Below, piece by piece: positions 16,179-64,000 of a stretch of DNA of 64,000 nt (positions are counted from its first letter, which is position 1; every line of letters starts with the position of its first letter). A program made the position numbers and the translations under genes. Under the pieces are notes generated by a model. The model was not told where the DNA came from, ran no database searches, and saw only the letters and a list, made by a program, of their open reading frames with translations. Source of the stretch: Deltaproteobacteria bacterium (GTDB lineage: Bacteria > Desulfobacterota > Syntrophia > Syntrophales > Smithellaceae); the NCBI GenBank assembly GCA_036528635.1, contig JAIGNE010000024.1, positions 133,079 through 197,078 on the forward strand, read 5' to 3'.

Positions 16179-16281
16179 ACACTGACCATTGCCGAAAAGA
16201 AGCTCATCCGGGTGTCGGAAAAAAGCAATTCCTGCAACATAGGCCGGACCGGTCAGTCTGGTCCAAAAGAATGGAGTGAAC

Positions 16282-16983
16282 ATGCCATCCTCATTGTACA
16301 TCAGCAGTCCGATCAACGCCTTGCTGGAGGGCTTATACCGCAATGACATCACCGTCGGGATGTTGATGGAGAAAGGTGATTTCGGCATCGGCACATTCAA
16401 TAGCCTGGACGGTGAAATGGTGGCGCTCGATGGTTCTTGTTTTTATCTCGATTTTGACGGCAATGCCCGCCCCGCGGCAGACGGGATGCAAAGTCCGTTT
16501 GCCACGATGTGCCGTTTTGAGCCGATGTTGACGGAGGAGGTCGAGGCGCCGCTTTCCCGTGCCGCATTCGCGGAGCGCCTCAAGCACATCCTTCCGTCGG
16601 ATAATATGTTTTACGCGATTCACATGACGGGATCGTTTAAATCGGTCGAGACGCGCTCGGTGCCCCGCACCGAGAATTACCGTCCGCTTTCCGAAGCCAC
16701 CAATTTTCAGAAAAGGCGCCATTTTAAAGACGTCGAAGGGCACCTGGTCGGCTTCTACACGCCGCCTTTTGTCCCGTCGATCAACGTGCCAGGATATCAC
16801 TTTCACTTCATCAACGATTCAATGTCGGCCGGCGGACACCTGTTGAATTGCGAGCCGAACCACCTGGACATCCGGCTGCAGATTTTTTTCAGCATGGAGT
16901 TGAGCCTGCCCAAAACACTGGATTACCTCACGGTTACTTTTGTGCGGGATGCCGAAAAAGATCTGGAAAAAGCCGAGCGATGA
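16282..16983 (+). CDS. alsD: alpha-acetolactate decarboxylase
   Basis: YISSPINALLEGLYRNDITVGMLMEKGDFGIGTFNSLDGEMVALDG and GYHFHFI are typical of AlsD/BudA. I preferred the ATG at 16282 (GGAG 5 nt upstream) over the GTG at 16276. Confidence 0.88.
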   Translation: MPSSLYISSPINALLEGLYRNDITVGMLMEKGDFGIGTFNSLDGEMVALDGSCFYLDFDGNARPAADGMQSPFATMCRFEPMLTEEVEAPLSRAAFAERLKHILPSDNMFYAIHMTGSFKSVETRSVPRTENYRPLSEATNFQKRRHFKDVEGHLVGFYTPPFVPSINVPGYHFHFINDSMSAGGHLLNCEPNHLDIRLQIFFSMELSLPKTLDYLTVTFVRDAEKDLEKAER

Positions 16984-17042
16984 AATCGAATACGGCGGTG
17001 TGCTCAGCCCCGGCAGGAAATCATTTTACTTTGGAATCGACA

Positions 17043-17750
17043 TCAAATCCCCAGATAAGCTTTTTTCACATTTTCATCATGCAGCAAATCCGAGGCTTTT
17101 CCTTCCATTGCGATCATACCGTTTTCCACGACATAGGCGCGGCTGGCTAGTTTCAGCGCCATGAAGGCGTTTTGCTCCACCAGGAAAATCGTGGTGTGGT
17201 GTTCAGTGTTGATCCGGGCGAGGATCGAGAAAATGAGCTTGGTCATCAGGGGGGAGAGCCCCAGAGACGGTTCATCCAGCAGGAGGAGCTTCGGTTTGGC
17301 CATCAGCGCGCGCGAAATGGCCAGCATCTGCTGCTCGCCGCCGCTTAAGGTGCCGCCCTGCTGATGGCGGCGCTGATGCAGGATGGGGAAAAGTTCGTAG
17401 ATATAGGCCAGGTCTGTTTTAATCTCTTCACGATCGTCGCGCAGGAATGCGCCCATTTCCAGATTTTCCAGAACGCTCAGTTTGGCGAAGATGCGCCGGC
17501 CTTCGGGAACCTGGCAGATGCCCATTGCTACGATTTTGTCGGGATCGGTTTTTTCAATCGGTTTGCCGCTGAAAAGTATTTGTCCGCTTCGGACCGGCGT
17601 GATGCCCGAGATGGACATGAGCGTCGTGGATTTTCCGGCGCCGTTGGATCCGATGAGCGCAACGATTTCGCCCGGAGCGACGGATAGGGAAATGCCTTTG
17701 AGGGCGCGGATGCTGCCGTAGCAGGTTTCCACATCAATCAGCTTCAGCAT
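17043..17750 (-). CDS. livF: branched-chain amino acid ABC transporter ATP-binding protein
   Basis: Walker A GSNGAGKST, signature LSGGEQQML and Walker B LLLLDEPS. 235 aa. Confidence 0.9.
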   Translation of the reverse strand: MLKLIDVETCYGSIRALKGISLSVAPGEIVALIGSNGAGKSTTLMSISGITPVRSGQILFSGKPIEKTDPDKIVAMGICQVPEGRRIFAKLSVLENLEMGAFLRDDREEIKTDLAYIYELFPILHQRRHQQGGTLSGGEQQMLAISRALMAKPKLLLLDEPSLGLSPLMTKLIFSILARINTEHHTTIFLVEQNAFMALKLASRAYVVENGMIAMEGKASDLLHDENVKKAYLGI

Positions 17751-18531
17751 CGGCTTCCACCCCCAGGTAGGCCTTGATGACTGTCGGATTGCTGCGGATT
17801 TCCTGCGGGGTTCCCCGCGCGATTTCCTCGCCGTAATCCAGAACGAAAATATTCTGTGACAGATTCATGACCAGTTTCATGTCATGTTCAATGAGCAGAA
17901 TCGAGAGATCGAAATCATTGCGCAGCCGGGCAATCAGCGCATCGAGCTCATTGGTTTCCTGAGGATTCATCCCGGCAGCCGGTTCGTCCAGCAGAAGCAG
18001 ACAGGGGTCTGTGGCCAGGGCCCGCGCGATTTCCAGACGGCGCTGCGCGCCATAGGGCAGCTCCCTGGCCAGTTCGTTTACAGCAGAGCTGAGCCCCATG
18101 TATTCCAGAAGGGTATAGCTCTTGTCCAGAATGGCTTTCTCCTCATCCCTCGTCCTTTGGGGACGGAAAATCGCGCCCAAAATGCCTGAGTTAGACCGGC
18201 TGTGACGGCCGATCATCACATTTTCCAAAACGGTCATGCCTTCGAAAAGACGGATGTTCTGGAATGTGCGCGCCACCCCCAGTTTGGTAATGGCATTGAT
18301 TTTCAATCCCTCGATCCGCGACGGTTTGCCCTGCGGCGGCGACAGCGTAATCTGGGCCGCAGTTGGTTTGTAGATGCCGGTCAGGCAATTGAAGAGCGTC
18401 GTTTTCCCCGCGCCGTTGGGACCGATCAGCGCTGTAATTTCTCCTTTACGGACATGAAGACTGACATTATCCAGCGCCCGCAGACCTCCGAAACACATGG
18501 TCAGATTTTTTACATCCAGAATATTATCCAT
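17734..18531 (-). CDS. livG: branched-chain amino acid ABC transporter ATP-binding protein
   Basis: Walker A GPNGAGKTT, a signature-like LPYGAQRRLEIARAL, Walker B LLLLDEPAAG and a C-terminal BCAA-type extension. It overlaps livF by 17 nt. Confidence 0.9.
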   Translation of the reverse strand: MDNILDVKNLTMCFGGLRALDNVSLHVRKGEITALIGPNGAGKTTLFNCLTGIYKPTAAQITLSPPQGKPSRIEGLKINAITKLGVARTFQNIRLFEGMTVLENVMIGRHSRSNSGILGAIFRPQRTRDEEKAILDKSYTLLEYMGLSSAVNELARELPYGAQRRLEIARALATDPCLLLLDEPAAGMNPQETNELDALIARLRNDFDLSILLIEHDMKLVMNLSQNIFVLDYGEEIARGTPQEIRSNPTVIKAYLGVEADAEAD

Positions 18532-22095: not shown

Positions 22096-23637
22096 ATGAA
22101 AAAACGCTATTCCTTCCATAAAAAAGATATTGAACAGATCAGGGCGCTGGGCCTGAAACCGTCTGCCGTGTATCAGCAGCTGGAAACCTACCGGAGGGGA
22201 TCGAACTATCTGGAACTTGTTCGTCCCTGCACTCCGGGCGACGGTATTCGATCATGTACAGCCGCAGAGCGCAGACGCCTGATTGGCCTCTATGACGCCG
22301 AAGCCGGTAAGCACAGGATCCTGAAATTTGTGCCGGCGTCAGGCGCGGCGAGCCGGATGTTTGCCGCGTGGTTTGCCGCGGCTGGGCAGGGCAGTTTCGG
22401 GAATGACAAGCTGGATCGGTCTTTTTTCGCTGATCTGAAAAAAATGCCTTTCATGCCGATGCTTCAAAAAGAAAAAACGGTTCGTCTGATGCTTAAGCGA
22501 AAGGATGTCGGGGCCGTGCTGGACTATATCCTTAAACCCGCCGGCCTCCATTTCGAATGGCTGCCCAAGGCGCTCATACCATTTCATGCCTATGGTAAAG
22601 GAGACGTCAGAACGGCCCTGGAAGAGCATTTGCGGGAAGCGGCAAGCTTTATTGCCAACCGGGACAAAACCTGCAGGGTGCACCTGACGATCTCACCGGA
22701 GCACGCCCGGGACGTTAAATCGTTAATGAAATCTCTTATCCCTGAATGTGAAAAACTGGGCCAGGTCCGGTTTAAAATCGCGTTGTCCGAGCAATCGCCG
22801 GCAACAAACATCATAGCGGTGGATGAAGAAAATCTGCCGTTTCGTGATGGCGATGGACGGCTGGTCTTCAGACCCGGCGGACACGGCGCGTTGCTCAAAA
22901 ACCTCCAGGAGATTGATGCCGATCTGATCTTTGTCAAAAATGTCGATAATATTGCGCCGGATGCCCTGCAAAAAAAAATATTGCCCTACAAAAAAATGCT
23001 GGGAGGCCTGGCGCTGCAACTGCGGCAGACCATCTTTGCGATGCTGAGGGGACTGGAAAAAGATCGACTCAGCGCAGACGAGATACGCGCCATGACTGAT
23101 TTTTGCCGGTTCGAGCTTAGCCTCTCCTTTCCGAAAGAATATTTGAGATTGTCTGAGAAGAATAAAAAGAAGCTGTTGTTTTCACGGCTGAACCGTCCGC
23201 TGCGCATCTGCGGAATGGTGAGGAACATCGGAGAGCCGGGGGGCGGTCCTTTCTGGGTTCTGGAAAAAGACGGATCACAGACCCTGCAGATCGTAGAATC
23301 AGCCCATGTGGATCACGCCCGGAGCGTGCAAAAGGACATCTGGTCGGGCTCAACGTATTTTAATCCGGTTGATATGGTCTGCTGCACGAAGAATTATCTC
23401 GGGGGAAAATTCAACCTGGCCGATTATGTCAACCCGGATGCTTATTTGATCAGCCCCAAGACCCAGAAGGGAAGCCATCTCAAGGCCCAGGAGCTGCCGG
23501 GTCTCTGGAACGGGGGGATGGCATACTGGAATACAGTTTTCGTGGAGCTGCCGCTTGCGGTTTTCAATCCGGTTAAGACCGTTGATGATCTTTTGCGTCC
23601 GCAGCATATCGCCGGCAGGAGATGCCGCAGACGCTAA
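22096..23637 (+). CDS. DUF4301-like protein (assignment from memory of the family; function unknown)
   Basis: 513 aa. It contains ..KFVPASGAASRMF.., FRPGGHGALL and NxGEPGGGPFW-type motifs, reminiscent of nucleotidyl-transferase-like DUF4301 proteins. Confidence 0.5.
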   Translation: MKKRYSFHKKDIEQIRALGLKPSAVYQQLETYRRGSNYLELVRPCTPGDGIRSCTAAERRRLIGLYDAEAGKHRILKFVPASGAASRMFAAWFAAAGQGSFGNDKLDRSFFADLKKMPFMPMLQKEKTVRLMLKRKDVGAVLDYILKPAGLHFEWLPKALIPFHAYGKGDVRTALEEHLREAASFIANRDKTCRVHLTISPEHARDVKSLMKSLIPECEKLGQVRFKIALSEQSPATNIIAVDEENLPFRDGDGRLVFRPGGHGALLKNLQEIDADLIFVKNVDNIAPDALQKKILPYKKMLGGLALQLRQTIFAMLRGLEKDRLSADEIRAMTDFCRFELSLSFPKEYLRLSEKNKKKLLFSRLNRPLRICGMVRNIGEPGGGPFWVLEKDGSQTLQIVESAHVDHARSVQKDIWSGSTYFNPVDMVCCTKNYLGGKFNLADYVNPDAYLISPKTQKGSHLKAQELPGLWNGGMAYWNTVFVELPLAVFNPVKTVDDLLRPQHIAGRRCRRR

Positions 23638-23658
23638 AGCCGGTTCGGGTGACCCAGC

Positions 23659-24645
23659 TCATGTCATCCGGTTTTCGCAGTCGTCCTTTGACGCCGCTTT
23701 GCTCTTGATCGTCGTTGAACATCCCCGACGGCTGCACGTCACATCAGCCTCGCTGTCGCCTGCGGCATCCGAATAACGGACGCATAAAGCCGCGGCCAGC
23801 CCTTTCGCCGATTCGTCTCCATAGGGAACCAGTACATAGGGCCCCGGATAGCGGGCCATGTTCAGAACCAGATCTTCTTCGAGCGTCAGGCGACGCAAAG
23901 CCTCATTATCGGCGTTGTTGCGGCCAACGATGATTTTGATGCCGTTTGCGGCGCGGAAATGCCTTCCGTATTTCAGCAAATGGTAATCCCGGATCTGACA
24001 ATCTTCGCCCCGATTCATCAGATCGCGCAAACGTCGCGAAAACATCGGATCGGTGAGCAGGCAGCCGCCGGCGGGCGGCGGGTAATGTTTGATGCCGAAT
24101 TCTTCCGCCATCCGCATTTGCTCTTTTCGTCCCCGTCCGGAAAGGCCCAGAAGCTGTAAACGGTCAATGAGGCCTTCCCGCTCCGCCCGGACGGGTTCGA
24201 GCAGTTGCGCGGACAGCGGTCTCAGGATGAAGTCGGCATAACCGGAGTTTTTCGCGACGATATAAAGGGACTGTTTGGTCTGCGACATGGGACGCTGACC
24301 CAGGACTTCGCCGGTGATCAGGATGTCCGCGCCGGTCTCCTGCATTTTTTTGCCCGCAATTTTCAGCATCAGGGTGTGGCAGTCAATGCAGGGATTCATG
24401 TTTTTGCCATATCCGTAACGCGGGGATTTGAGCATTTGCAAATGTTCGTCCGTGATATCCTGAATGATCAGGGGCAAACCGATCTGATCGGCCGCCGCCC
24501 GCGCTTTGTCTGCGCCGAAGAAGGGCGTTGTAAAGGTTATCCCGGTTACGTCGATATTTTGTTTTTGAAGCACCTTGACGGCTAAAATACTGTCGAGGCC
24601 TCCGGACAGCAAAGAGATGGCTTTTATCATGTTCATCAATCCCAT
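23659..24645 (-). CDS. PP-loop (adenine nucleotide alpha-hydrolase) ATPase fused to a C-terminal DUF814/NFACT-R-like domain
   Basis: The PP-loop is SLLSGGLDS, with CIDCH and GEVLGQRPMSQ as in ThiI/MnmA-type sulfurtransferases. The C-terminus IIVGRNNADNEAL..DLVLNMARYPGPYVLV matches the GRNxxxNDxL..PGSHV pattern of DUF814. The start is uncertain (24645, 24636 or 24630). Confidence 0.7.
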   Translation of the reverse strand: MGLMNMIKAISLLSGGLDSILAVKVLQKQNIDVTGITFTTPFFGADKARAAADQIGLPLIIQDITDEHLQMLKSPRYGYGKNMNPCIDCHTLMLKIAGKKMQETGADILITGEVLGQRPMSQTKQSLYIVAKNSGYADFILRPLSAQLLEPVRAEREGLIDRLQLLGLSGRGRKEQMRMAEEFGIKHYPPPAGGCLLTDPMFSRRLRDLMNRGEDCQIRDYHLLKYGRHFRAANGIKIIVGRNNADNEALRRLTLEEDLVLNMARYPGPYVLVPYGDESAKGLAAALCVRYSDAAGDSEADVTCSRRGCSTTIKSKAASKDDCENRMT

Positions 24646-24716
24646 TAAAAAAATACAAGAGCACTGCCGAAGACAATCTGCATCGCTTGTGCGATGTTGG
24701 ATCGGACAACAAAAAG

Positions 24717-26450
24717 TCAGTAACGGACGATGCCTGCGGACCATGTTTCCTGCATCAATCCGCGCAATTCCTGGTTGAAATCAAAATTAACAACGTAGAA
24801 GCTCTTTTCCGTTTTGATCTTGGTGCCGTTGAAACCGAAGCTGTAGGGCGGTTGATTCTTATCCAAACCGGAAAACGTAAAATAACCGGATGTAAAAACA
24901 AACTGAAAGCCGTGCAGAATCTTTTCCATATTTTTGGCGGGATCATCCTGATCGGAGATAAAGATGAGCTCGTTGCCGGATTTTTGCAGAATAGCGGTAA
25001 ATTGCGGCGGCAAGTTTCGCGAAAAAATAAGGATTTTCTTTTCGCCCCGCGTAACGGCGATATCCGCTTTAATGGACAGATTAAATCCGTCCTTTTCAAT
25101 ATTGAAAACTCTGACATCGACATCCTTTTCTCCCTGGATGTCCAGATAAGAAAGCAGCGCATAAGAAAAATCCCTGGCGGACGTGGTTGGCAGAACCGCA
25201 ACCGGCGGGAGCGAATATATTTCTTCCGGTTTCGCGACCAAACCTTTTTCCGGGGAAATTTCCGTGATGATCCATGAATACCGGCGCGCATAATTCACGA
25301 TGGCCCGCGGCAACAGAGCGTTGTTCTCATACACGAACCGCAATCCCTGGTTGATGGGAGGGGAATTTTTTGCGTCTTTTCGGATGATGATCCAGTCAAC
25401 AAGGACTTCCAGCGGAGGCAGCGTCCCTATGCAAACCGGTTGCTGCGCTTTGGTCAGCTCGTAGGTTTTGGTCATCCTGAATATTTTTTTCAACATGACA
25501 ATGACGTCGTCTTTATCGTCGATTTTTACTAAATGGTAGTTTTTCCAGTTGTCACTGATTATCTTTTTCAGGGGCTGGCTGGACCGATTTTCCAGATCAA
25601 GAAAGATTGTCGTCTTCTGATCCAGTTCCACAACCGGAATGACGGAACAGTCGATCGTCAGTTGCTCGGTTCGGGAGACCGGCAGATAATAGTTTCCGTT
25701 GGTAATCATGCTGCCGTTCATCTGCGTAATGATGTGCTTGACGACGGCCATTCGTTCGGCGGGAGGCAAAGCGATGGACTCTTTCGCTGTGCCGTCTTTT
25801 GTGTCTTGCGATGAAGATTCGTCCTGAGGCGTTAGGACCTGGACTTTTTCTCCGGCCGGCGCAACATCCTTCTTCACCGTTACGGCAAAAGAGGCTTTTG
25901 CAGCCGTTTGACCTTCGGGCAGGCGAATGATCTGGCCGATGTAGATTTTATGGACGTCCTTAATGCCCGGGTTCAACGCTTTGATCTCCAGCAATATATT
26001 CTGCGTACGGCTGCTGATGCGGAGCTCGCGGTGAACGATTCGAATGAGACTATCGCCTTTTTTAACCCGGTAGGCTTGAGAACCGGCGTCTTCCGTCCCG
26101 GAAGCGGCAAGGGCCGGGGCCGGTGTTTCCGAGGTCGCCGGGCTTTTTCCAGGCAGCCGGATGGTCTGCCCTTCGTACAGTCTGTCCAGGTCGGCGATGT
26201 CGGGATTCAGTTCTTTGGTCATCTCGTAATAACGGGGGATGTCTTTTTCAGTGATGCCCGGCAGCCGGCGAACGATTGCGGAAAGAACGTCGCCTTTCTG
26301 AACTGTGTAATTCTGAAAATATTTTTTGGACACGGCCGTCTTGCTGAAAGTCAGCTGAGCCGTGTCCTCGTTACTGGATAAGGCCTGCGAATAAAACAAA
26401 AAAATGGAAAGAAAGCAAAGAATAAAAGCCTGCCGGAAAATCTTCCCCAT
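24717..26450 (-). CDS. periplasmic protein with two LysM domains and a roughly 350-aa C-terminal region of unknown function
   Basis: A signal peptide (MGKIFRQAFILCFLSIFLFYSQALS) is present. The LysM motifs are YTVQKGDVLSAIVRRL..IRLP and YRVKKGDSLIRIV..IIRLP. The C-terminus contains two similar modules of unknown fold. Confidence 0.7.
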   Translation of the reverse strand: MGKIFRQAFILCFLSIFLFYSQALSSNEDTAQLTFSKTAVSKKYFQNYTVQKGDVLSAIVRRLPGITEKDIPRYYEMTKELNPDIADLDRLYEGQTIRLPGKSPATSETPAPALAASGTEDAGSQAYRVKKGDSLIRIVHRELRISSRTQNILLEIKALNPGIKDVHKIYIGQIIRLPEGQTAAKASFAVTVKKDVAPAGEKVQVLTPQDESSSQDTKDGTAKESIALPPAERMAVVKHIITQMNGSMITNGNYYLPVSRTEQLTIDCSVIPVVELDQKTTIFLDLENRSSQPLKKIISDNWKNYHLVKIDDKDDVIVMLKKIFRMTKTYELTKAQQPVCIGTLPPLEVLVDWIIIRKDAKNSPPINQGLRFVYENNALLPRAIVNYARRYSWIITEISPEKGLVAKPEEIYSLPPVAVLPTTSARDFSYALLSYLDIQGEKDVDVRVFNIEKDGFNLSIKADIAVTRGEKKILIFSRNLPPQFTAILQKSGNELIFISDQDDPAKNMEKILHGFQFVFTSGYFTFSGLDKNQPPYSFGFNGTKIKTEKSFYVVNFDFNQELRGLMQETWSAGIVRY

Positions 26451-38142: not shown

Positions 38143-38158
38143 TGGCATAAGGATTGCT
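38143..38158 (+). promoter_or_regulatory. sigma-54 promoter of the che operon
   Basis: TGGCATAAGGATTGCT is a near-perfect match to TGGCAC-N5-TTGCW. It lies 113 nt upstream of the cheR ATG and faces away from the NtrC-type activator gene. Confidence 0.75.
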
Positions 38159-47983: not shown

Positions 47984-47999
47984 TGCAAACCAGATGCCA
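47984..47999 (-). promoter_or_regulatory. sigma-54 promoter of the PilZ-motA-motB operon
   Basis: The minus strand reads TGGCATCTGGTTTGCA (the plus strand reads tgcaaaccagatgcca). It lies about 35 nt upstream of the PilZ ATG at 47949, which has a GGGGAA Shine-Dalgarno. Confidence 0.7.
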
Positions 48000-48191: not shown

Positions 48192-48207
48192 TGGTATGCA
48201 AATTGCT
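48192..48207 (+). promoter_or_regulatory. sigma-54 promoter of the SPOR/TPR-kinase-activator operon
   Basis: TGGTATGCAAATTGCT, 40 nt upstream of the ATG at 48247. Confidence 0.7.
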
Positions 48208-51033: not shown

Positions 51034-52269
51034 ATGGAAGATTTGTCTTTACTGCAGAAATCATTTGAAAGCTTCAATAAGGCGACCGCGGAACTGGAGC
51101 GTGCCTATGCACGCCTGGAAGAAAGGTTTGCCTCTCTGAATCGGGAACTGGAAGCCAAAAATGCCGAGCTTTTGAAAACCATCGAGGAAAAAGAACAGAC
51201 CAAGAACTATCTGCAAAATATTCTGGAGAGCCTGATTAACGGCGTGATTGTGACGGATCTCGCCGGCCGGATTTCGACACTCAATTCCTGCGCGGAATCT
51301 TTTACGGGCGCGCAGCAGGCCGATGTGATCGGCCGGCACATCAGCGTACTGTTTGAGTCAATGCCGGTCCTTGACTGGCAGGCGATTAACCTGCCTGAAT
51401 ACTTCAAGGGAGAAGCGGGTCATAAAGTAAAGATCGGTGGACGAACGCTTGAAATATTCTGTTCTCCTTTTAAATCACCCGCAGGCCAGGTCATCGGACA
51501 TGTTTTTGCTCTGCGTGACATGACGCGCATCGAAAAGTTGGAAGAGATGGCCAAGCGCACAGAAAAATTCGCCGCGATGGGCGAGATGGCCGCCAATATT
51601 GCTCATGAAGTGCGCAATCCTTTGGGCAGCATTGAACTGTTTGCTTCGCTGCTTTTGAAGAACCTGGTGGAGAAGAAAGACCGGGAGCGCGCTCTCCAGA
51701 TTATTTCATCCGTCAAGAATGTCGACAATAAAATATCCAATCTTTTGCTCTTTACCCGCCGGCCGTCACCGCAAATGAAGGAGATTCATTTGCATCAGAT
51801 CCTGAAGGACGTCATCGATTTTTCCGAGCAGATCATAGAGCAGGCGGGAATTGACATCTCCGTGCAGTTGGCGGCGAGCGACATCCTGGTTTCAGCCGAC
51901 GCAGAAATGCTCAAACAGGTTTTTCTAAACATTATTCTCAATGCGCAGCAGGCCATGCCGGAAGGCGGGAGGCTGTGCATTGTCACCCGCCTGGCGCCCA
52001 AAAGTCTTCTGGAGCCGCGGGAACAGATTGCCGAAATAATATTCCAGGACGCCGGACCGGGAATTCCTCCTCAGGATATCTCCAGAATATTTGATCCTTT
52101 TTTCAGTACCAGGGAAAGCGGTTCGGGACTGGGGCTGGCGATTGTTCACAATATTGTTAGCGAGCATAATGGTTCCATATCCGTGGAAAATGCACGCGCC
52201 GGAGGTATGATCGTGACTATCAACCTGCCCGCTGTGATCCGAAGCGGAATAGCATGGGAGAGTATCTAA
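51034..52269 (+). CDS. cytoplasmic PAS-domain sensor histidine kinase (FlrB/FleS/FlgS-like by context)
   Basis: Coiled coil, PAS domain (NGVIVTDLAGRISTLNSCAESFTG), HisKA domain (ANIAHEVRNPL) and HATPase domain (DAGPGI..GSGLGLAIV). There are no TM segments. Confidence 0.88.
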   Translation: MEDLSLLQKSFESFNKATAELERAYARLEERFASLNRELEAKNAELLKTIEEKEQTKNYLQNILESLINGVIVTDLAGRISTLNSCAESFTGAQQADVIGRHISVLFESMPVLDWQAINLPEYFKGEAGHKVKIGGRTLEIFCSPFKSPAGQVIGHVFALRDMTRIEKLEEMAKRTEKFAAMGEMAANIAHEVRNPLGSIELFASLLLKNLVEKKDRERALQIISSVKNVDNKISNLLLFTRRPSPQMKEIHLHQILKDVIDFSEQIIEQAGIDISVQLAASDILVSADAEMLKQVFLNIILNAQQAMPEGGRLCIVTRLAPKSLLEPREQIAEIIFQDAGPGIPPQDISRIFDPFFSTRESGSGLGLAIVHNIVSEHNGSISVENARAGGMIVTINLPAVIRSGIAWESI

Positions 52270-53676
52270 ATGTCAAATGCGGAAAGATTGTTGATTGTCG
52301 ATGATGATTCGTCCATGCGCATGGCGCTTTATGAATCCTTGAGCAGCTGCGGTTACGACGTGGAAACGGCCGAAAACGGCGCCGACGCGCTGGTTAAATT
52401 CAAGAGCGGACAATTTGCCGGCGTAGTAACGGACATGCGGATGCCGAAAATGAGCGGCATGGATGTTTTGAGAGGTGTCAAGCGGATTTCGCCCGAAACA
52501 CCTGTTATCCTGATTACCGCTTACGGGACCGTCAATACGGCGGTGGAAGCCATGAAGGAAGGTGCTTCCGAGTTTATCATGAAGCCGTTCTCTCTCGATG
52601 ACCTCGAATTTGCGGTCAAAAATGTCCTGGCTGCCAATATGCAATCAAAGACGGATAAAGATGAAGAAGCGGCAGGCAATACCCACCCTCATAAGGAAAT
52701 TATTACACAGGACAAGAATATTCTGGCTTTGCTCGACATGCTCAAAAGTGTTGCCAAAAGCAAATCCAGTATTCTCATTCAGGGGGAAAGCGGAACAGGA
52801 AAAGAATTGTTTGCGCGCTTTGTTTATCGCCACAGCAACCGCCGCCAGATGCCTTTTGTCGCAGTGAATTGTGCGGCTATTCCCGCGCAGCTTCTGGAAA
52901 GTGAAATGTTTGGTTATGAAAAAGGCGCGTTTACCGGAGCGACCGTAAAAAAAATTGGCAAGTTTGAATTGGCCGACGGCGGGACGCTTCTTTTGGATGA
53001 AATATCGGAAATGGACATTCAACTCCAGGCAAAGTTGCTTCGGGTCATTCAGGAATCGGAAGTGGACCGGCTGGGTGGTAAAATGCCTGTTGCGGTCGAT
53101 GTGCGGCTCATCGCGACCACCAATGCCGATCTCCAGAATCGAATACTTCAGAAATCGTTTCGCAGCGATCTCTATTACCGGCTGAACGTCATCCCGGTCA
53201 TCGTGCCGCCGCTTCGTGAAAGAAACGGCGACGTGATCATCCTTGCGGAGCATTTTATCAAAAAGTACAGTGAAGTGAATGAAAAAAAAGAACCGGTGCT
53301 GACCGCAGAAGCAAAAGCTTCCCTTCAGGCCTATTCCTGGCCGGGCAATGTTCGTGAATTGGAAAATGTCATCGAAAGGGCTGTTTTGATCTGTTCCAAT
53401 GATCAGATTACGTCATCAAATTTGTTTATGGAGAAAAATGAATCCTCCGGAAATCGGCAAACCATGCAAAACGATGACGAAACAAAATCATGTCAGGAAA
53501 TTGACGGAGGACAGAAAAATACGTTATATGAAATGGAAAAAAACATGATTTTTGACACATTGAATAAAGTCAACTGGAACAAAACAAAAGCCTCAAAGAT
53601 ACTGGGAATCAGTGTTCGCACGATGCGCAACAAGTTAAATGAATACGGGATAAAAGATGCGAACCCTGACGATTAA
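52270..53676 (+). CDS. NtrC-family sigma-54-dependent response regulator (FlrC/FleR/FlgR-like by context)
   Basis: REC domain (LLIVDDD..GVVTDMRMPKMSG), AAA+ domain (GESGTGKE, GAFTGA) and a Fis-type HTH. The ATG directly abuts the kinase stop codon. Confidence 0.92.
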   Translation: MSNAERLLIVDDDSSMRMALYESLSSCGYDVETAENGADALVKFKSGQFAGVVTDMRMPKMSGMDVLRGVKRISPETPVILITAYGTVNTAVEAMKEGASEFIMKPFSLDDLEFAVKNVLAANMQSKTDKDEEAAGNTHPHKEIITQDKNILALLDMLKSVAKSKSSILIQGESGTGKELFARFVYRHSNRRQMPFVAVNCAAIPAQLLESEMFGYEKGAFTGATVKKIGKFELADGGTLLLDEISEMDIQLQAKLLRVIQESEVDRLGGKMPVAVDVRLIATTNADLQNRILQKSFRSDLYYRLNVIPVIVPPLRERNGDVIILAEHFIKKYSEVNEKKEPVLTAEAKASLQAYSWPGNVRELENVIERAVLICSNDQITSSNLFMEKNESSGNRQTMQNDDETKSCQEIDGGQKNTLYEMEKNMIFDTLNKVNWNKTKASKILGISVRTMRNKLNEYGIKDANPDD

Positions 53677-53686
53677 TTAATGAGAC

Positions 53687-53702
53687 TGGTATGCGATTTG
53701 CA
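53687..53702 (+). promoter_or_regulatory. sigma-54 promoter of the flgB operon
   Basis: TGGTATGCGATTTGCA, 26 nt upstream of the flgB ATG. Confidence 0.75.
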
Positions 53703-56513: not shown

Positions 56514-57506
56514 ATGACAGGTGAAGAAAAAGCGGCTATTCTGCTTTTATCGTTGGACGAAGATCTGGCGGCTAATGTGATGAAAAATCTACGGCCGTCG
56601 GAAATCCGCAGGCTTGGCAAACAGATGAGCAAGGTATCCAATATTCCGGCGGAAACCGTCGGCTCAGTCGCCAAAGAATTTTGCACGATGGCCAAGGAAC
56701 TTGGCGGAATGATCACGGTTCGCGACGGCGCTCCGAAAAATCTCATGGTCAAGGCACTGGGTGAGAAAGACGCAGAAACAATCATCAACCAGGTGGACAG
56801 TTCAGCCTTTGACAATCCGATCATCGACAAACTGCATGACATCGATCCAAAAGTCATGGCGGAATTTACACGCACGGAACATCCGCAGACCATTGCCCTG
56901 ATCATGGTGCACTTGAAACCAGAAAAGGCTGCCCAGGTTTTGGAACATTTCTCACCGGCCATTCAGTACGAAATCACGAAGCGCATGGCGACGCTCAAGA
57001 GCGTACCCCGCGAATTTATCGAAGAAGTGGCCAAGACGCTGGAGAAAGAACTGATTTCAGGAAACTCCAGCGATTTGCAAATGGGCGGTGTGCAGGTCAT
57101 TGCCGATATCTTGAACCGGATGAACCGCTCCACGGAAAATGGCATCATGACATCCCTGGAGGATTCCGATCCGGAACTGGCTGCACAAATACGCAATTTC
57201 ATGTTCAGCTTTGATGATGTTTTGAAACTTGACGACAAATCCTTACAGGAACTGATGAAAGATGTCAGCGCCGAAGACCTGTCCCGGGCACTGAAATTAG
57301 TTGATGAGGGACAGCGCGATAAGATCTTCAAGAATATGTCCAAGCGCGGAGCCGAAATGCTCAAGGAAGAGATATCACTGATGCCCCCGATCAGACTGTC
57401 GGAAGTTGAAGCCAGCCAGCGGAAAATCGTCGAAACAACGAAAAAACTCGAAGCGGAAGGCAGAATTGTTATTTTGCGTGGTGATGAAAAGGATGGATTC
57501 GTATAA
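56514..57506 (+). CDS. fliG: flagellar motor switch protein FliG
   Basis: GEEKAAILLLSLDEDLAA..HPQTIALIM..MFSFDDV..RGAEMLKEE. Confidence 0.93.
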   Translation: MTGEEKAAILLLSLDEDLAANVMKNLRPSEIRRLGKQMSKVSNIPAETVGSVAKEFCTMAKELGGMITVRDGAPKNLMVKALGEKDAETIINQVDSSAFDNPIIDKLHDIDPKVMAEFTRTEHPQTIALIMVHLKPEKAAQVLEHFSPAIQYEITKRMATLKSVPREFIEEVAKTLEKELISGNSSDLQMGGVQVIADILNRMNRSTENGIMTSLEDSDPELAAQIRNFMFSFDDVLKLDDKSLQELMKDVSAEDLSRALKLVDEGQRDKIFKNMSKRGAEMLKEEISLMPPIRLSEVEASQRKIVETTKKLEAEGRIVILRGDEKDGFV

Positions 57507-59514: not shown

Positions 59515-59955
59515 ATGTTTAAATTTAAATTGCAATCCGTCCTTGAATACCGTTTGAACATCGAGGAAAAAATCCTCAATGAATTTTCCGACCTCAAACG
59601 ATCCCTGGAAGAGCAAAAAGCCATATTGCGAACACTGATCGCCGAGCGGGAAAGTTTAATAAACGATTTGAGAAATATGCAACGGACCATGATGCGGGCA
59701 GACGATATTGCCACGATTGTTGCATATATTGAAAACATACGGATGAAGGAAAAAGATCAGAAAAATGTTATTCACCAAGCCAAGGAACAAGTGGAGAACA
59801 AAAGAAAAGAGTTGATGGAAGCGGTAAGAAACAGAAAAGTTATGGAAAATTTAAGAGACAAGCATGCTGAGGCGTATCACAAAAATCTCGGTGAACTGGA
59901 GCAAAAAAACTCGGACGAAATGTCCGTCTTGAAATTCGGCAGGAGAGGGACATGA
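59515..59955 (+). CDS. fliJ: flagellar export chaperone-like protein FliJ
   Basis: 146-aa coiled-coil protein starting FKFKLQSVLEYR, immediately after fliI. Confidence 0.75.
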   Translation: MFKFKLQSVLEYRLNIEEKILNEFSDLKRSLEEQKAILRTLIAERESLINDLRNMQRTMMRADDIATIVAYIENIRMKEKDQKNVIHQAKEQVENKRKELMEAVRNRKVMENLRDKHAEAYHKNLGELEQKNSDEMSVLKFGRRGT

Positions 59956-60587
59956 AAAAAATTATTATTGTAGCTCAGGTATTTATTGCCGTCTTGATTC
60001 TTGTCAAAGTGGCATCTGTTTTCGGTATTCTGAAGAAAGGAGATTATTTTACCGAGGCGGCATCCATTGCCACGCAAGCCGTGGCGCAGACCAAAACACC
60101 CGATATAGCGGCAGCCAAGGCTAAGGCCCCGACCACGGTTGTGTCAAATGCTTTACCGGCTAAAGACGCCATGTCGGACATATTGACGGAGCAAAGGGAT
60201 TTAGCGACGGCGCTCGCGGCAAAAAAAATGGAACTCGATGACCGGGAAAATGCGCTCCGCGCCGATGAACACAGATTGATGGCCATGCGCAAAGACATTA
60301 CGGAGAAAATAGCTATCTTGAAAGTCCAGGAAGAAAAGCTTGCGGCTCAAATGGATACGACGCGGGAAGAAGATATTAAGCGGTACAAGGAAATGGCGAA
60401 AGTATACGAAAACACCCCACCGGCTAAAGCCGGCCCCATGATGGAAAAGCTTGATACCAAGACCGCCGCCGGCATTACCATGAATATGAAAAAAGACAAG
60501 GCCGGCGCCTTGTGGGCTTACATCACCCCGCAAAAGGCTGTGGATATTACCAAGGAGATCACGCGCTCGGGCGGATCCCAGCAATAA
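59952..60587 (+). CDS. MotE-family / MgtE-N-like flagellar-cluster protein
   Basis: It has an N-terminal TM helix, a coiled coil and a C-terminal ..YENTPPAKAGPMMEKLDTKTAAGI.. region, as in MotE/FlbB-type proteins that follow fliJ. It overlaps fliJ by 4 nt. Confidence 0.5.
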   Translation: MKKIIIVAQVFIAVLILVKVASVFGILKKGDYFTEAASIATQAVAQTKTPDIAAAKAKAPTTVVSNALPAKDAMSDILTEQRDLATALAAKKMELDDRENALRADEHRLMAMRKDITEKIAILKVQEEKLAAQMDTTREEDIKRYKEMAKVYENTPPAKAGPMMEKLDTKTAAGITMNMKKDKAGALWAYITPQKAVDITKEITRSGGSQQ

Positions 60588-60595
60588 TGCGAATC

Positions 60596-60633
60596 GGCCG
60601 AGTATGCTTTGCTGAAGAAGCATACTCGGCCTT
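60596..60633 (+). terminator. terminator-like hairpin after the motE-like gene
   Basis: A perfect 14-bp stem pairs ggccgagtatgctt (60596-60609) with aagcatactcggcc (60618-60631). Only a weak T-run (TTAT) follows. Confidence 0.55.
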
Positions 60634-60722
60634 ATCAAACCAATAATTCCTGACCTTTTAAATCATATCGATAATACTTCAGCCCACTCACAGATACCTG
60701 ATCCATCAAACGAAAGTAGCAA

Positions 60723-60751
60723 TTGACTTGCCAATAGAACGGGTCTATGTT
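60723..60751 (+). promoter_or_regulatory. possible sigma-70-type promoter of the caspase-like gene
   Basis: TTGACT (60723-60728), a 17-nt spacer, then TATGTT (60746-60751). It lies 160 nt upstream of the ATG, in AT-rich DNA where chance matches are likely. Confidence 0.3.
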
Positions 60752-60910
60752 TTAAACATCATAAATTATCCTTGGACTGCGATGAATAATTAAATCGAAT
60801 CTTGAAATGCCGTACATAGGAATATCAAAGTTTAAAACGATAGCAAGGTAAATAAAACACATCCAGGGAATGATTGTATCTATATCATCATCGAAAAGGA
60901 GAAAAGACCG

Positions 60911-63172
60911 ATGAAGATGGAAACGATATCACTGATTCTTTGCATGTTTGTTTTATCCATGATGATAAGTTGCGCCCATACAACCTCGTCTGTTCAGCTT
61001 TGCGAAAATGAGAAATGCGCGACACTTACTGAACTCGATTCCCAAGATGCCGTATTTTTAAAGCTCACAGACATGATCAAAGCCAATCTCGGTAAAAAAA
61101 TCCCCATGCTGATCAGTTCAGTTAAGGATGGTCCAACAGAAACGTCCATTAATTATGAGTGGATTGAGGTGAGTCGTCAAAAAGGGTACTTGCAGATTCG
61201 TTCGCTCGTCTTTGCTGATATTCTTTTTTTGGACAAGGAAAAAAGGGAGGCCAAGGTGGAAGTTCATCTTCACGTGACTGGTCCCCGGGGATCTAATATT
61301 GCTAAAATGTCCTGTATTGTCGCGGTTAAATCTGCCAAAGAAGTTATTATAGAGGGAAACGTAAAATTACCGCCCTTTGCGACTCTTTACCTTGACGTAT
61401 CGATAAGCTCCATCGATATAGATAGGGCATTATGGACCTCTGTCTTTGAACTGAATATGAATGCGGTTAACGTGCAGTCATTAAAAAAGCAGGGCTATCT
61501 TACACTTTCCTTTCCAATCACTTCTTATCCGAAAACTCTGCAGCAGGCAAAACAGAAGCCGGTGATTCAGCAGACTCAGACGAAGCCCGATAGCACTCTT
61601 AAACCGGATCTGACGTACCGGGTGACCTTTGACGACAAGAGCGGGAAGAAGATCTTTTACGGCGGCGATGAAGTCGGCATCAGGGTGGAAGTGGAAAATA
61701 CCGGTGAAGGCACAGCCCGGGATGTCCAGGCTGTGATTTCAGGTAGTCATGCTCTCGTTTCCTATATCGGCAACCGGAGATTTCTCGGCGATTTGAAAAG
61801 GGGAGAGAAAAAGGCCGTCGTCTTCAGCGCCATGCTGCCGGCCAATATTCCAATGGAGACGGCCAGCGTGCAGGTGGAGGTTGTCGAGGGCCGCGGGTTT
61901 TCCCCGGCGGAAAAGCAGACCTTCGCGACGCATATGAAACCGCTGGCCTCCAAGGAGAGCGTCGAGATCATTGCCTCGCAGATGCCACGTCTGGACTATA
62001 CCGTGGAGATTACCGACCGCAACGGCAACAAGGTGCTGGACAGCAGCGAGGAAATCATCGTCCGGGTGGCGATTGAAAATACGGGTGAAGGCACGGCCGA
62101 CGGCGTCAACATTGAACTTGCAGGTCAGAAAGAAATCATCGATGTCCTGGGCCACGGGGTGAAAGTCGGGGATCTGGGACCGAAGCAGAAGAAGATCTAT
62201 GAATTTAAGGGCACTCTGCCGGCGAGGATACCGACCAATACGGCCCTGTTGAAGGTGAGAATCCATGAGCTGCATGGATACTCGCCCGCCGGGAAGAACT
62301 ACCAGATTGCCATGAAAGCCGCGGAGGACGTTGCCGAGCAGACTGTGGTCATGTCGGAAGTTGATGTGGATGACATTCCGGCCAGGATCAGGGGCTATGA
62401 GAACAGCAGCAACTACGCGGTGGTCATCGGCATCGGCAATTACCGGGACAAGGCCATTCCCAAGGTCAAGTATGCCAACCGGGATGCGGAAACCATGGCC
62501 AGATATCTCGAGCATTTAGCCGGAATCCCGAAAGAGAACATTTTGATCAAAACAGATGCAGACGTTACCAGGGGCGATCTGGAAGACTTTTTTGAAAGCT
62601 GGCTGCCCCGGAGAGCATCTGCTGATTCCACGGTTTACGTTTACTACGCCGGTCACGGCACGCCGGACATTGCCGGCCGGGAGGCTTACATTGTTCCGTA
62701 CGAAGGGCACCCGGATTCTCCAGGCAAGCTCTATCCGCTGAAGAAGATGTATGGCTCGCTTAGCAAGCTGCCCGCGAAGCAGGTCATTGTGATGCTGGAC
62801 AGCTGCTTTTCCGGCGCGGAAGGACGCAGCGTCAGCCGTCAGGGTGCGAGGCCGCTGGTCATGGCGGTCGAGAACCAGGTATTATCGGGGGACAAGATTC
62901 TGGTCATTGCGGGGGCCAAGGGCAACCAGATCAGTTCAGACTATGACAAGGCCAGGCACGGCTTGTTCACCTATTACGCGCTCAGAGGCATCCGTGGAGA
63001 AGCGGACCGCAACGGTGACGGGGTGGTGGCTGTGGGCGAATTCTACGACTATGTCCGGCAAAACGTTTCCCGGAAGGCATCCGTGGAACTGAACCGGGAT
63101 CAGACTCCGGACCTGCTCCCCAGCAGAGCTTCCGCTCACGCGCTGGCCATCCCTCTGTCCAGAACAAAATAA
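60911..63172 (+). CDS. lipoprotein with tandem Ig-like (CARDB-type) repeats, a caspase-like peptidase C14 domain and a C-terminal EF-hand-type loop
   Basis: It has a lipobox (LSMMISC). Two tandem modules of about 110 aa share (V/I)ENTGEGTA. The caspase His/Cys dyad contexts are VYVYYAGHGTP (His582, codon 62654-62656) and VIVMLDSCFSGA (Cys632, codon 62804-62806). DRNGDGVVAVGE (63005-63040) fits the 12-residue EF-hand loop. AAGGAGAA lies upstream of the ATG. Confidence 0.85.
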   Translation: MKMETISLILCMFVLSMMISCAHTTSSVQLCENEKCATLTELDSQDAVFLKLTDMIKANLGKKIPMLISSVKDGPTETSINYEWIEVSRQKGYLQIRSLVFADILFLDKEKREAKVEVHLHVTGPRGSNIAKMSCIVAVKSAKEVIIEGNVKLPPFATLYLDVSISSIDIDRALWTSVFELNMNAVNVQSLKKQGYLTLSFPITSYPKTLQQAKQKPVIQQTQTKPDSTLKPDLTYRVTFDDKSGKKIFYGGDEVGIRVEVENTGEGTARDVQAVISGSHALVSYIGNRRFLGDLKRGEKKAVVFSAMLPANIPMETASVQVEVVEGRGFSPAEKQTFATHMKPLASKESVEIIASQMPRLDYTVEITDRNGNKVLDSSEEIIVRVAIENTGEGTADGVNIELAGQKEIIDVLGHGVKVGDLGPKQKKIYEFKGTLPARIPTNTALLKVRIHELHGYSPAGKNYQIAMKAAEDVAEQTVVMSEVDVDDIPARIRGYENSSNYAVVIGIGNYRDKAIPKVKYANRDAETMARYLEHLAGIPKENILIKTDADVTRGDLEDFFESWLPRRASADSTVYVYYAGHGTPDIAGREAYIVPYEGHPDSPGKLYPLKKMYGSLSKLPAKQVIVMLDSCFSGAEGRSVSRQGARPLVMAVENQVLSGDKILVIAGAKGNQISSDYDKARHGLFTYYALRGIRGEADRNGDGVVAVGEFYDYVRQNVSRKASVELNRDQTPDLLPSRASAHALAIPLSRTK

Positions 63173-63463
63173 AATAAAAAACATTGATAAAGAAATGCAG
63201 AAACAATTTATCTATGTTTCAATTCAGCAAGAAAATAAATTTGATAGTTTGAGTCCGGAAGCATTCGACGGAGATAAGGTTCTCATGTTTGGAATGAGGG
63301 AGCTTTAACTCTAAAAAAGTATTGCGACCAACCTGTTTTATCCTGCCCAACCCTACAATCTTTGCCTTGCCCAGTAGGAACATTTTTCCCGATTCGTATT
63401 TTTGAAAAATAAATGTGATTTGTAAATATATGATAATATAGAGAATAAAAACTGAATATCCGA

Positions 63464-63479
63464 TGGCATGCCTCTTGCT
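63464..63479 (+). promoter_or_regulatory. sigma-54 promoter of the downstream flagellar gene
   Basis: TGGCATGCCTCTTGCT, about 40 nt upstream of the ATG at 63518. Confidence 0.75.
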
Positions 63480-63517
63480 CTCAGGTTCATTAAAATAGAT
63501 GTGGAGGAAGTACGGAC

Positions 63518-64000
63518 ATGTCTAGAGGAATAACTGCCGAAGCAAATCCGGAAATGAGTATTGGAAACCTGCTGCAAATGTTCAAGGCGGCCGGTTTGGA
63601 TAAAATAACGGCGAATGGAAACAATGTCGCTGGCGGAAGCAATAACACCGAAAATGGAAATAAATTTTTCCAGGTATTGCAAGAGCATGTGGCTGCACTT
63701 CTTCAATCTGAGCAACCGAGTATTGCCCCGGAGACAACGTCGAAACAGGACTTATCTTTAGTTTTGGAAAAACTGTTGCAGGGAGATAAAAGTGCTGCGG
63801 ATGAAATTCTCTCAGAATTGGCATTATTGGGAATTAACGGCAAGCCAGAAGGACGTGTTGATGATAAATCTAAAGTTCCTGGAGAAACATTTATCAGATT
63901 CATTCCATCTTCGGAAACACCCGAAAAAAGTAATCTGAATCCAGTTACAGGAAGACCTTATATTGTAGGCAATATCAGCGGTCCGGAAGGCTTTAGCAAT
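63518..64000 (+). CDS. flagellar-cluster protein, probably the N-terminus of the hook-length control protein FliK (partial; continues beyond the window)
   Basis: The ATG has GGAGG 10 nt upstream. The open frame runs to the window end with no stop, which is why it is absent from the ORF track. The sequence is low-complexity and Ser/Glu/Asn-rich. It occupies the position after fliJ/motE where fliK normally sits and has its own sigma-54 promoter. Confidence 0.45.
   Translation, partial: MSRGITAEANPEMSIGNLLQMFKAAGLDKITANGNNVAGGSNNTENGNKFFQVLQEHVAALLQSEQPSIAPETTSKQDLSLVLEKLLQGDKSAADEILSELALLGINGKPEGRVDDKSKVPGETFIRFIPSSETPEKSNLNPVTGRPYIVGNISGPEGFSN

Follow-up and report, generated by a model that had tools for sequence, protein, structure and literature searches.

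A predicted caspase-like lipoprotein gene lodged at a variable flagellar operon boundary

Results

A single gene behind the flagellar cluster

The window, a 64-kb stretch of DNA, contains on its + strand a 753-aa open reading frame (60911-63172) encoding a caspase-like (Peptidase C14) lipoprotein, as judged from Pfam and NCBIfam matches and from full-length orthologues. We consider it probable (roughly 0.75) that this ORF is a real and intact gene for an exported, lipid-anchored C14 protease, which was relocated within its lineage and stands outside the flagellar machinery. The original prediction had described a single gene of this size between flagellar units, and one ORF is indeed found there. 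It is a single-gene unit, located where the flgB...fliJ-motE operon gives way to the next sigma-54-driven unit, and it most likely arrived there by rearrangement within the lineage, without the DUF4384 gene that usually flanks it.

On the 5' side, flgB, flgC, fliE, fliF, fliG, fliH, fliI, fliJ and a MotE/FlbB-like gene form a single + strand run that ends at 60587. This cluster had been proposed before and was confirmed by ORF calls together with Pfam and NCBIfam matches. The penultimate gene of the operon, fliJ (59515-59955, + strand), exceeds the cutoff of Pfam FliJ (E 7.5e-16) as well as that of TIGR02473 (E 7.6e-20). The terminal MotE/FlbB-like gene (59952-60587, + strand) matches MgtE_N with E 6e-5, which is below the gathering score, and FlbB with E 2.3e-4; motE orthologues with 28-42% identity are located 3' of fliJ in four related genomes (L009-L012).

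Nine nucleotides past the motE stop codon lies a hairpin (60596-60631, + strand), which may be an operon-end structure. The predicted perfect 14-bp stem was seen, with exact arms and a loop of 8 nt. Folded as RNA, the hairpin forms 15 pairs at -28.2 kcal/mol (z = -6.5), a stability that none of 200 shuffled sequences reached, and it occurs only once in the window. It was not called in the terminator scan because it lacks a T-tract. The upstream spacer that follows (60632-60910) is 279 nt long with a GC content of about 0.37; neither an Rfam family nor nucleotide similarity to orthologous loci was found in it. A sigma-70-like TTGACT-17-TATGTT at 60723-60751 is a consensus-level match, the count of promoter-like matches not exceeding chance, and a GGAG at 60898-60901 is positioned 9 nt 5' of the caspase-gene ATG. 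No + strand sigma-54 motif was found 5' of the caspase gene. The downstream spacer (63173-63517, 345 nt) is likewise low in GC, and it yielded neither a terminator-like structure nor a remnant of a DUF4384 gene. Since the hairpin is devoid of a T-tract and no terminator is found 3' of the caspase gene, the latter could be co-transcribed with the flagellar genes.

The next ORF on the + strand (63518-64000) is represented by its start only and runs past the window end, leaving 161 aa inside the window. A sigma-54-type motif, TGGCAT-N5-TTGCT, is found at 63464-63479 (+ strand), 39 nt 5' of the ATG at 63518, and its sequence TGGCATgcctcTTGCT matches TGGCAY-N5-TTGCW perfectly. The sigma-54 promoter predicted at 63464 thus stands as a motif, but with 7 such motifs the window does not exceed the number expected by chance (mean 5.2). 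Similar sites are located 5' of cheR (38143), the PilZ-motAB unit (47984, minus strand), the 48247 gene and flgB (53687), and the window also encodes a sigma-54 activator (52270-53676). The location of these motifs directly 5' of motility operons is suggestive despite the chance-level count. The description of the downstream ORF as fliK-like gained no support from any of the tools used. It has no Pfam or NCBIfam match, pairwise BLASTP revealed no similarity to FliK of relatives, and a search of 5.8 billion proteins returned the self-match only, a 206-aa product with no domain and with C-terminal peptide repeats. In FliK of relatives the Flg_hook domain (PF02120) is C-terminal (aa 726-801 of 859 in L011, aa 332-408 of 461 in L010), so that in the ORF, of which only 161 aa are in the window, the equivalent part may lie past the sequence covered. 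The ORF may be the N-terminus of FliK. A literature search found no paper on Syntrophus fliK.

The product is a predicted lipoprotein with a C14 catalytic domain

The caspase-like protein starts with a signal peptide and lipobox (60911-60973, + strand), in which MKMETISLILCMFVLSMMIS directly precedes Cys21. The lipobox rule is well established. Cys21 is invariant and preceded by Gly or Ser in 28 orthologues, and the structure model places a hydrophobic helix at aa 3-19. Such a signal peptide, closed by a lipobox whose Cys does not vary, predicts a bacterial lipoprotein, in agreement with the earlier assignment.

The N-terminal domain (aa 28-200; 60992-61510, + strand) combines an up-and-down beta-barrel with one helix and a Cys31/Cys36 hairpin. 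When the whole model was used, the fold search was swamped by generic Ig-domain matches and, consequently, this domain was modelled alone (AF2 pLDDT 88.6, pTM 0.82). Compared with the PDB, the barrel gave weak matches to lipocalin, avidin and PsbO (calycin-like) barrels, and it falls into no Pfam family. Among 1.84 billion representatives, about 171 clusters contain the domain, in each case at the N-terminus; proteases are fused to it in 19 of the 112 clusters scanned (C14 in 17, Trypsin_2 in 2). Two tandem CARDB-type Ig-like domains follow (aa 231-343 and 358-469; 61601-62317, + strand; Pfam CARDB E 3.4e-7). They were modelled as beta-sandwiches, for which Foldseek returned Ig-domain tandems, and aa 228-455 partially match TIGR03900 (model positions 548-768, E 1.8e-13). 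The family architecture is fixed, consisting of the signal peptide with its lipobox Cys, the Cys-pair hairpin, the unnamed beta-barrel, a disordered linker, the two CARDB domains and the C14 domain, which carries the His-Cys dyad. No paper describing a combination of lipobox, barrel, two CARDB domains and C14 was found in a literature search.

The Peptidase C14 catalytic domain (aa 502-751; 62414-63163, + strand) was recognized by PF00656 over aa 502-735 (E 1.1e-17, 64.9 bits vs a cutoff of 21.4), covering positions 3-223 of the 233 in the profile. His582 (62654-62656, YYAGHG) and Cys632 (62804-62806, LDSCFSG) do not vary among 28 orthologues, and the two motifs align to HYSGHG and FDSCHSG of metacaspase-1 (7qp0). 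The catalytic residues are therefore kept on proper alignment, as the original prediction had stated for their contexts. In the AF2 model the C14 region has the caspase-type alpha/beta fold, mostly with pLDDT 70-90 and with loops below 50, and Foldseek matched it to 7qp1_B, a metacaspase from Candida glabrata (E 6.8e-6, TMt 0.59). Sequence searches of the PDB gave no match with the full-length profile and marginal metacaspase matches with the C14-only profile (E 0.01). As to a p10-like C-terminal subdomain, the feature that sets metacaspases apart from orthocaspases, the stretch AGAKGNQISSD aligns weakly with SGSKDNQTSAD of metacaspase-1 and is non-significant when taken alone. EF-hand-like matches were obtained for a loop spanning D699-E710 (63005-63040). 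Asp630 is located two residues ahead of Cys632, which we take to be the pattern of Arg/Lys-specific metacaspases. Judged by its sequence, the protein is a clan CD, family C14 cysteine protease of the metacaspase/orthocaspase-like type with predicted activity.

Orthologues are located away from flagellar genes

Sequence comparison places the gene in an orthologous family of about 755 aa that extends across the Syntrophales. The 34 full-length orthologues share 40-68% identity and originate, where named, from Syntrophaceae/Smithellaceae; truncated copies on contigs reach 72-73%. Using 10 flagellar proteins of the window as tblastn queries, no match was obtained in 88 caspase-family loci (873 kb). 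In a further locus, L169, none of the called genes matches a flagellar Pfam family, bringing the homologous loci to 89 (about 0.89 Mb) in total. Likewise, 80 fliI loci, taken together with 10 kb on either side, yielded no caspase homologue. A flagellar role, which had been raised from the position of the gene, finds no echo in the family, since orthologues are kept at unrelated sites with no flagellar linkage, an outcome that had been named beforehand as refuting it. Because homologues are never near flagellar genes in these loci, the placement in the window looks like gene shuffling and not like flagellar function.

In most loci of full-length orthologues, a gene for a secreted DUF4384 protein adjoins the caspase gene on the same strand. 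No DUF4384 match was obtained within the 64-kb window, and a lax tblastn search of both spacers for a remnant returned noise only; a partner gene, or a second caspase copy, may be located elsewhere in the genome. Of the full-length orthologues examined, that of locus L001 is the closest, and nucleotide homology to this locus extends no further than the caspase stop codon. A related genome (L002) carries orthologues of the DUF4301 (68%) and ThiI (71%) genes of the window, with its caspase copy 5.5 kb from both.

The four relatives L009-L012 keep flgB...fliJ-motE, and none of them has a caspase gene at the junction after motE. In L011, fliK-flgD-flgE directly follows after a gap of 168 nt, while in L010 a minus-strand TPR gene separates motE from a perfect sigma-54 site and fliK. 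In L009 (Syntrophus buswellii) the junction holds alr-ddl, and in L012 a sigma-54 site and fliL-fliM-fliN-fliP. Hence, the claim that fliK directly follows fliJ or motE in related gene orders is correct for L011, whereas L009, L010 and L012 each have another occupant. With a different occupant in each of the four relatives, the site is best described as a variable operon boundary. The proposed insertion of a cargo gene into a permissive intergenic site agrees with this synteny, as the closest relatives have no caspase gene there. This comparison comprises four relatives, and FliI of the nearest is just 76% identical; both the timing of the relocation and its direction are read from parsimony.

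Alternative origins and roles

The gene might instead be foreign DNA that was recently carried on a mobile element to an AT-rich site between genes. Three features are in line with such cargo: low-GC flanks, a sharp GC3 step within the gene, from 0.46 in the 5' 230 codons to 0.70 in the remainder, and arrival without the usual DUF4384 partner. The AT-rich flanks that had been pointed out are real (279 + 345 nt), but with a GC content of about 0.34-0.37 they are ordinary for promoter-bearing intergenic DNA of the window, where other such regions have 0.338, 0.357, 0.357 and 0.371. The AT-rich beginning of the gene is equally real, but it is not a mark of insertion. L001 has the same low-GC3 step at a non-flagellar site, and thus the step is older than the move and not a scar of insertion at this position. 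Taken as a whole, the gene has a GC content of 0.523 and a GC3 of 0.63, within about 1 SD of the window genes (0.49 +/- 0.04 and 0.575 +/- 0.063, respectively). Around it, long direct or inverted repeats, tRNA genes, tandem repeats and Rfam families were absent, the best inverted repeat spanning the gene being 16 nt at 88%, and the flanks contain no recombinase, integrase or transposase ORF. These results speak against cargo of a mobile element or genomic island. The host-like composition and the origin of all close homologues from the same order, in Syntrophales-type genomes, also lend no support to the earlier notion that the gene was acquired as foreign DNA, and we regard a recent horizontal acquisition as unlikely.

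A lipoprotein recruited to process or degrade a periplasmic part of the flagellum, and co-expressed with the cluster, is a doubtful proposition with a low probability. Candidate substrates would be the MotE/FlbB-like protein or proteins of the rod, hook or collar, and the product is predicted to be extracytoplasmic, as they are. The gene also shares its strand with the flagellar units on either side, behind a hairpin without T-tract and with no terminator on its 3' side. However, flagellar genes are absent from all 88 homologous loci and from the called genes of L169, the 80 fliI loci without a caspase include those of the three nearest relatives, unrelated genes hold the junction in relatives, and the caspase gene has no + strand sigma-54 motif 5' of it. 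It is very unlikely that the relocated gene was captured by the flagellar regulon through read-through over the hairpin, its product trimming or turning over a periplasmic flagellar component in this lineage only. If true, this would be the first link of a bacterial caspase homologue to flagellar assembly. The motE boundary could also be the ancestral position, every other lineage having since lost or moved the gene; the sample at the junction comprises just four relatives, each unlike the others. This reading needs independent loss in every relative and independent relocation in all 89 other loci, which often share the DUF4384 neighbor, and is both unparsimonious and highly improbable. Finally, the best NCBIfam match, 'caspase, EACC1-associated type' (NF047832, E 3.2e-22), and a match to the generic caspase model of PADLOC (E 6e-18) could point to a cytoplasmic conflict or cell-death caspase of EACC1 or defence type, acting as effector of an NTPase-coupled immunity system. 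The NF047832 score of 79.1 bits is, however, far below the cutoff of 140, the PADLOC match is limited to the shared catalytic core, the lipobox is invariant, and no NTPase or EACC1 partner adjoins the gene in the window. Based on the score and on the predicted export, membership in such a system was rejected, and we find this role hardly credible.

Discussion

As a lipid-anchored protease, the product would be exported via Sec and then lipidated at Cys21, and the Ala at +2 would sort it to the outer membrane if E. coli rules apply. The barrel would be held close to the membrane, with the two Ig domains serving as a stalk. By analogy to metacaspases, Asp630 suggests that the C14 domain cuts extracytoplasmic proteins after Arg or Lys. 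Its activity may be controlled by Ca2+ via the EF-hand-like loop 699-710, and further control may come from autoprocessing within loop 634-660, which is disordered and contains the invariant Arg residues R639 and R647.

The significance for flagellar biology is small; gene shuffling where the border between operons varies is the best explanation for the position of the gene. The value for annotation is modest and lies in a Syntrophales family of predicted lipid-anchored, extracytoplasmic C14 proteases with an intact dyad and, usually, a secreted DUF4384 partner, as well as in the N-terminal beta-barrel outside Pfam. To our knowledge, bacterial caspase homologues are largely uncharacterised and, hence, an exported family with a candidate partner would be a tractable target for biochemistry.

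The survey by Asplund-Samuelsson et al. 2012 (PMC3501461) deals with prokaryotic caspase homologues that have predicted signal peptides or extracellular domains. The window protein shares with proteins of that survey its deltaproteobacterial C14 type and a hydrophobic stretch at the N-terminus, probably a signal peptide, and the family is abundant in the phylum. In contrast, the architecture of lipobox, unnamed barrel, two CARDB domains and C14 is not described there. A tandem CARDB-like Ig cassette is also found in the MXAN_5808 family of long C-terminal processing peptidases (TIGR03900). These are serine peptidases, whereas the window protein is of the C14 cysteine type and, with a score of 49 vs a cutoff of 661, not a member. 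DUF4384 is not a fused domain in the other loci of the caspase family but a separate adjoining gene, and it is missing in the window. The closest likeness is to metacaspases and orthocaspases (MEROPS C14, clan CD), among them yeast and Candida metacaspase-1 and Microcystis MaOC1. PF00656, the GHG and D-S-C-x-S-G motifs, a predicted fold matching 7qp1_B, the Asp two residues before the catalytic Cys and a possible Ca2+ site are shared, at a sequence similarity to solved metacaspase structures that is marginal (E 0.01). While metacaspases and orthocaspases are cytoplasmic enzymes with a prodomain, the window protein is a predicted exported lipoprotein, in which a barrel and two Ig domains form a long extracytoplasmic N-terminal extension.

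Genomic context of the caspase gene

The flagellar run starts on the forward strand with flgB (53728) and continues through flgC, fliE, fliF, fliG, fliH, fliI and fliJ (59515-59955) to a MotE/FlbB-like gene (59952-60587). The listed fliH ORF uses a TTG start at 57406, so that its first 100 nt or so (57406-57506) coincide with the end of fliG; its real start is probably further downstream. Nine bases past the motE stop codon, two perfectly paired 14-bp arms (60596-60609 and 60618-60631) flank an 8-nt loop, forming a hairpin found only once within the window. Its predicted RNA fold has an energy of -28.2 kcal/mol (z = -6.5), and none of 200 shuffles was equally stable. The terminator scan did not call this hairpin, because TTATCAAACC, without a T-run, follows directly 3' of it. 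After a 279-nt spacer (GC about 0.37) comes the single caspase ORF (60911-63172, forward strand, 753 aa), with GGAG 9 nt upstream, and a 345-nt spacer (GC about 0.35) separates it from the next ORF at 63518. Both spacers are no more AT-rich than the window's other promoter-bearing intergenic regions (GC 0.338-0.371). No terminator was found 3' of the caspase gene. Since the hairpin also lacks a T-tract, the one loose end is that the gene may be co-transcribed with the flagellar genes.

A perfect sigma-54-type motif, TGGCATgcctcTTGCT, is located at 63464-63479 on the forward strand, 39 nt before the ATG of ORF 63518. Further motifs lie upstream of cheR (38143-38158, forward strand; gene start 38271), a PilZ-motA-motB unit (47984-47999, reverse strand), a TPR/SPOR gene at 48247 (48192-48207, forward strand) and flgB (53687-53702, forward strand), all five having 0-1 mismatch. 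Although the window holds no excess of such motifs over chance in total (7 vs 5.2 +/- 2.1), their placement before motility genes is telling. Together with a histidine kinase and a sigma-54 activator encoded within 51034-53676 (activator gene, 52270-53676), they look like a sigma-54 motility regulon. A one-mismatch motif, TGGCAAGTCAATTGCT, on the reverse strand of the spacer 5' of the caspase gene (60718-60733), overlaps a sigma-70-like -35 box, is oriented back toward motE and is probably due to chance. The hairpin, spacers, 753-aa ORF and sigma-54 motif were all found where the original prediction had placed them.

ORF 63518 (63518-64000, forward strand) runs off the window, and the 161 aa inside it match no Pfam or NCBIfam family. 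Its recorded product, P0042, has 206 aa and no Pfam domain. A search of 5.8 billion proteins returned only the window's own product, and no similarity was detected to the FliK of a Syntrophales MAG (L011) or to the L010 ORF (L010 being Syntrophaceae UBA2192). The label "fliK-like" therefore has no family match, similarity or homologue behind it. FliK proteins show little conservation in their N-terminal part and carry Flg_hook close to the C-terminus (in L011, at aa 726-801 of 859); the position and sigma-54 motif of ORF 63518 would thus fit a FliK, an identity that is assumed. The end of P0042 consists of near-identical peptide repeats, NP(H)IDPTTGKPYV-ANISGPEGFS (NPHIDPTTGKPYVNANISGPEGFS), of a kind that might have disrupted the assembly or the gene call.

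The junction after motE varies among relatives

Flagellar loci of relatives were collected by a FliI genome scan, yielding 80 loci. The gene order from flgB to motE (flgB-flgC-fliE-fliF-fliG-fliH-fliI-fliJ-motE) is kept in all four relatives compared, namely Syntrophus buswellii DM-2 (L009, FliI 76%), L010 (76%), L011 (65%) and, beyond these three closest, a deltaproteobacterial MAG (L012, 61%). What follows motE differs: alanine racemase and D-Ala-D-Ala ligase in L009; in L010, a TPR protein of 481 aa encoded on the other strand, after which come a perfect sigma-54 motif and fliK-flgD-flgE; a 168-nt spacer, then fliK (859 aa, Flg_hook), flgD and flgE in L011; a sigma-54 motif and fliL-fliM-fliN-fliP and further genes in L012. 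The end of motE is therefore an operon boundary with repeated changes of gene order, and the caspase gene is its occupant in the window lineage. In L010, the spacer after motE (about 12520-12630) carries a run of GGTAACA heptamer repeats, then CACCTGA repeats and a GGTACCTGTTACC segment, preceding the minus-strand TPR gene.

Caspase homologues reside at non-flagellar sites

Among 5.8 billion proteins, 34 close homologues (40-68% identity; 27 full-length, the rest fragments) were found; those that bear a name are annotated "caspase family protein" and come from MAGs of Syntrophaceae or Smithellaceae. We collected 89 loci encoding family members. Using ten window proteins (flgB to motE and the downstream ORF) as tblastn queries, no flagellar gene was detected at 88 of them (873 kb, E <= 1e-3), and no flagellar family occurs among the called genes of the 89th (L169). 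The surrounding genes are unrelated, being either housekeeping or unknown; one neighbour recurs, a secreted DUF4384 protein of some 270-290 aa whose gene shares the caspase strand. This gene directly follows the caspase gene in L001 (68% identity), L004-6, L089 (72%), L108, L109 and L110 (73%), directly precedes it in L007/8, L091, L093-97 and L102, and is absent from L002, L100, L112 and L169. At the orthologue loci with 56% identity, the gene directly behind caspase and DUF4384 belongs to the T6SS Hcp family, PF05638 (L004, 9930-11400; L005, 3730-5200; L006, 3177-4596). No DUF4384 sequence was found anywhere within the window, and nucleotide similarity to the closest loci starts about 75 nt into the caspase ORF and stops at its stop codon. 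Thus, the window caspase is an orphan that moved without its partner.

The original prediction, most parts of which are real, offered two readings of this arrangement. For a protease acting on flagellar components, the family shows no conserved flagellar linkage and its members occur at unrelated sites, so that this reading fails the refutation test set by the original prediction itself. Insertion into a permissive site is supported by the absence of a caspase homologue from all 80 fliI loci and with the varying junction occupants. Whether the inserted gene was foreign or resident can be judged from composition and synteny. Whole-gene GC (0.523) and GC3 (0.63) lie about one SD or less from the 59 other ORFs of the window (GC 0.49 +/- 0.04, GC3 0.575 +/- 0.063). 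Within the gene, GC3 steps from 0.46 over the first 230 codons to 0.70 beyond, but the same step is present in the L001 orthologue at a non-flagellar site; it therefore predates relocation and belongs to a subclade with a divergent N-domain. The flanks contain no long repeats, tRNA genes, tandem repeats, recombinase ORFs or Rfam families. In L002 (MAG GCA_964450075.1), orthologues of the window's DUF4301 (68%) and convergent ThiI (71%) genes (15902-18386; window, 22096-24744) lie 5.5 kb from the caspase gene, compared with 37 kb in the window. This suggests loose conservation of an ancestral neighbourhood and fits a resident gene shuffled locally; import does not fit.

Domain architecture and proposed function

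The ORF is intact and conserved. Pfam assigned Peptidase_C14 to aa 502-735 (E 1.1e-17, 64.9 bits; cutoff 21.4) and CARDB to aa 231-322. Below the NCBIfam thresholds were "caspase, EACC1-associated type" (79 bits, cutoff 140) and the tandem Ig region of MXAN_5808-type serine peptidases. Across 28 aligned full-length orthologues, invariant residues comprise Cys21, which ends a hydrophobic leader and is preceded by G or S as in a lipobox, Cys31 and Cys36, His582 in YYAGHG, Asp630-Ser631-Cys632 in LDSCFSG, and R639 and R647 within an Arg-containing low-confidence loop (634-660). In the AlphaFold model (pLDDT 73), disordered linkers connect four modules, namely the N-terminal domain (aa 28-200), a pair of beta-sandwiches (234-343 and 361-469) and the C14 domain. 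The latter contains a canonical EF-hand-like loop, DRNGDGVVAVGE (63005-63040; D699-R-N-G-D-G-V-V-A-V-G-E710), present in the subclade that includes the window protein; a similar DRNGNKVLDSSE stretch in the second CARDB domain (62015-62050) shares 80% nucleotide identity with it over 25 nt.

The N-domain (60992-61510), modelled alone (pLDDT 88.6, pTM 0.82), is predicted to form a short Cys-bridged hairpin, one helix and an up-and-down beta-barrel. It matches no Pfam family, and its PDB matches (CpeS lyase, PsbO barrel, avidins, lipocalins) are weak and generic (best E 1.2e-3, TM 0.3-0.5). It carries a GGGxGY motif and two Cys residues that are conserved as a pair. When 1.84 billion representatives were searched with its profile, 171 clusters were recovered; almost all of those listed have the domain close to the N-terminus, in proteins of about 90-800 aa. 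When 112 such proteins were scanned, Peptidase_C14 occurred in 17, Trypsin_2 in 2 and TPR repeats in 1; the majority had nothing known besides the N-domain. Only two items are mildly new, this unnamed barrel family and the pairing of caspase with DUF4384.

By analogy with lipoproteins and C14 peptidases in general, the protein would be exported and lipidated at Cys21; the barrel would sit close to the membrane, and the Ig domains would form a stalk. Because of Asp630, the C14 domain is proposed to cleave after Arg or Lys; Ca2+ might control it, and autoprocessing may occur in loop 634-660. Where other genomes encode it, the DUF4384 protein is likely a substrate, regulator or co-factor.

The two active-site motifs align with HYSGHG and FDSCHSG of Candida metacaspase-1 (7qp0; C14-part profile, E 0.011), and the modelled C-terminal domain matches metacaspase 7qp1_B (TMt 0.59). 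Prokaryotic caspase homologues, which abound in Deltaproteobacteria, have predicted TM or signal segments in about 15% of cases and mostly lack a known function (PMC3501461). The caspase lipoprotein is another member of this known, uncharacterised kind of protein.
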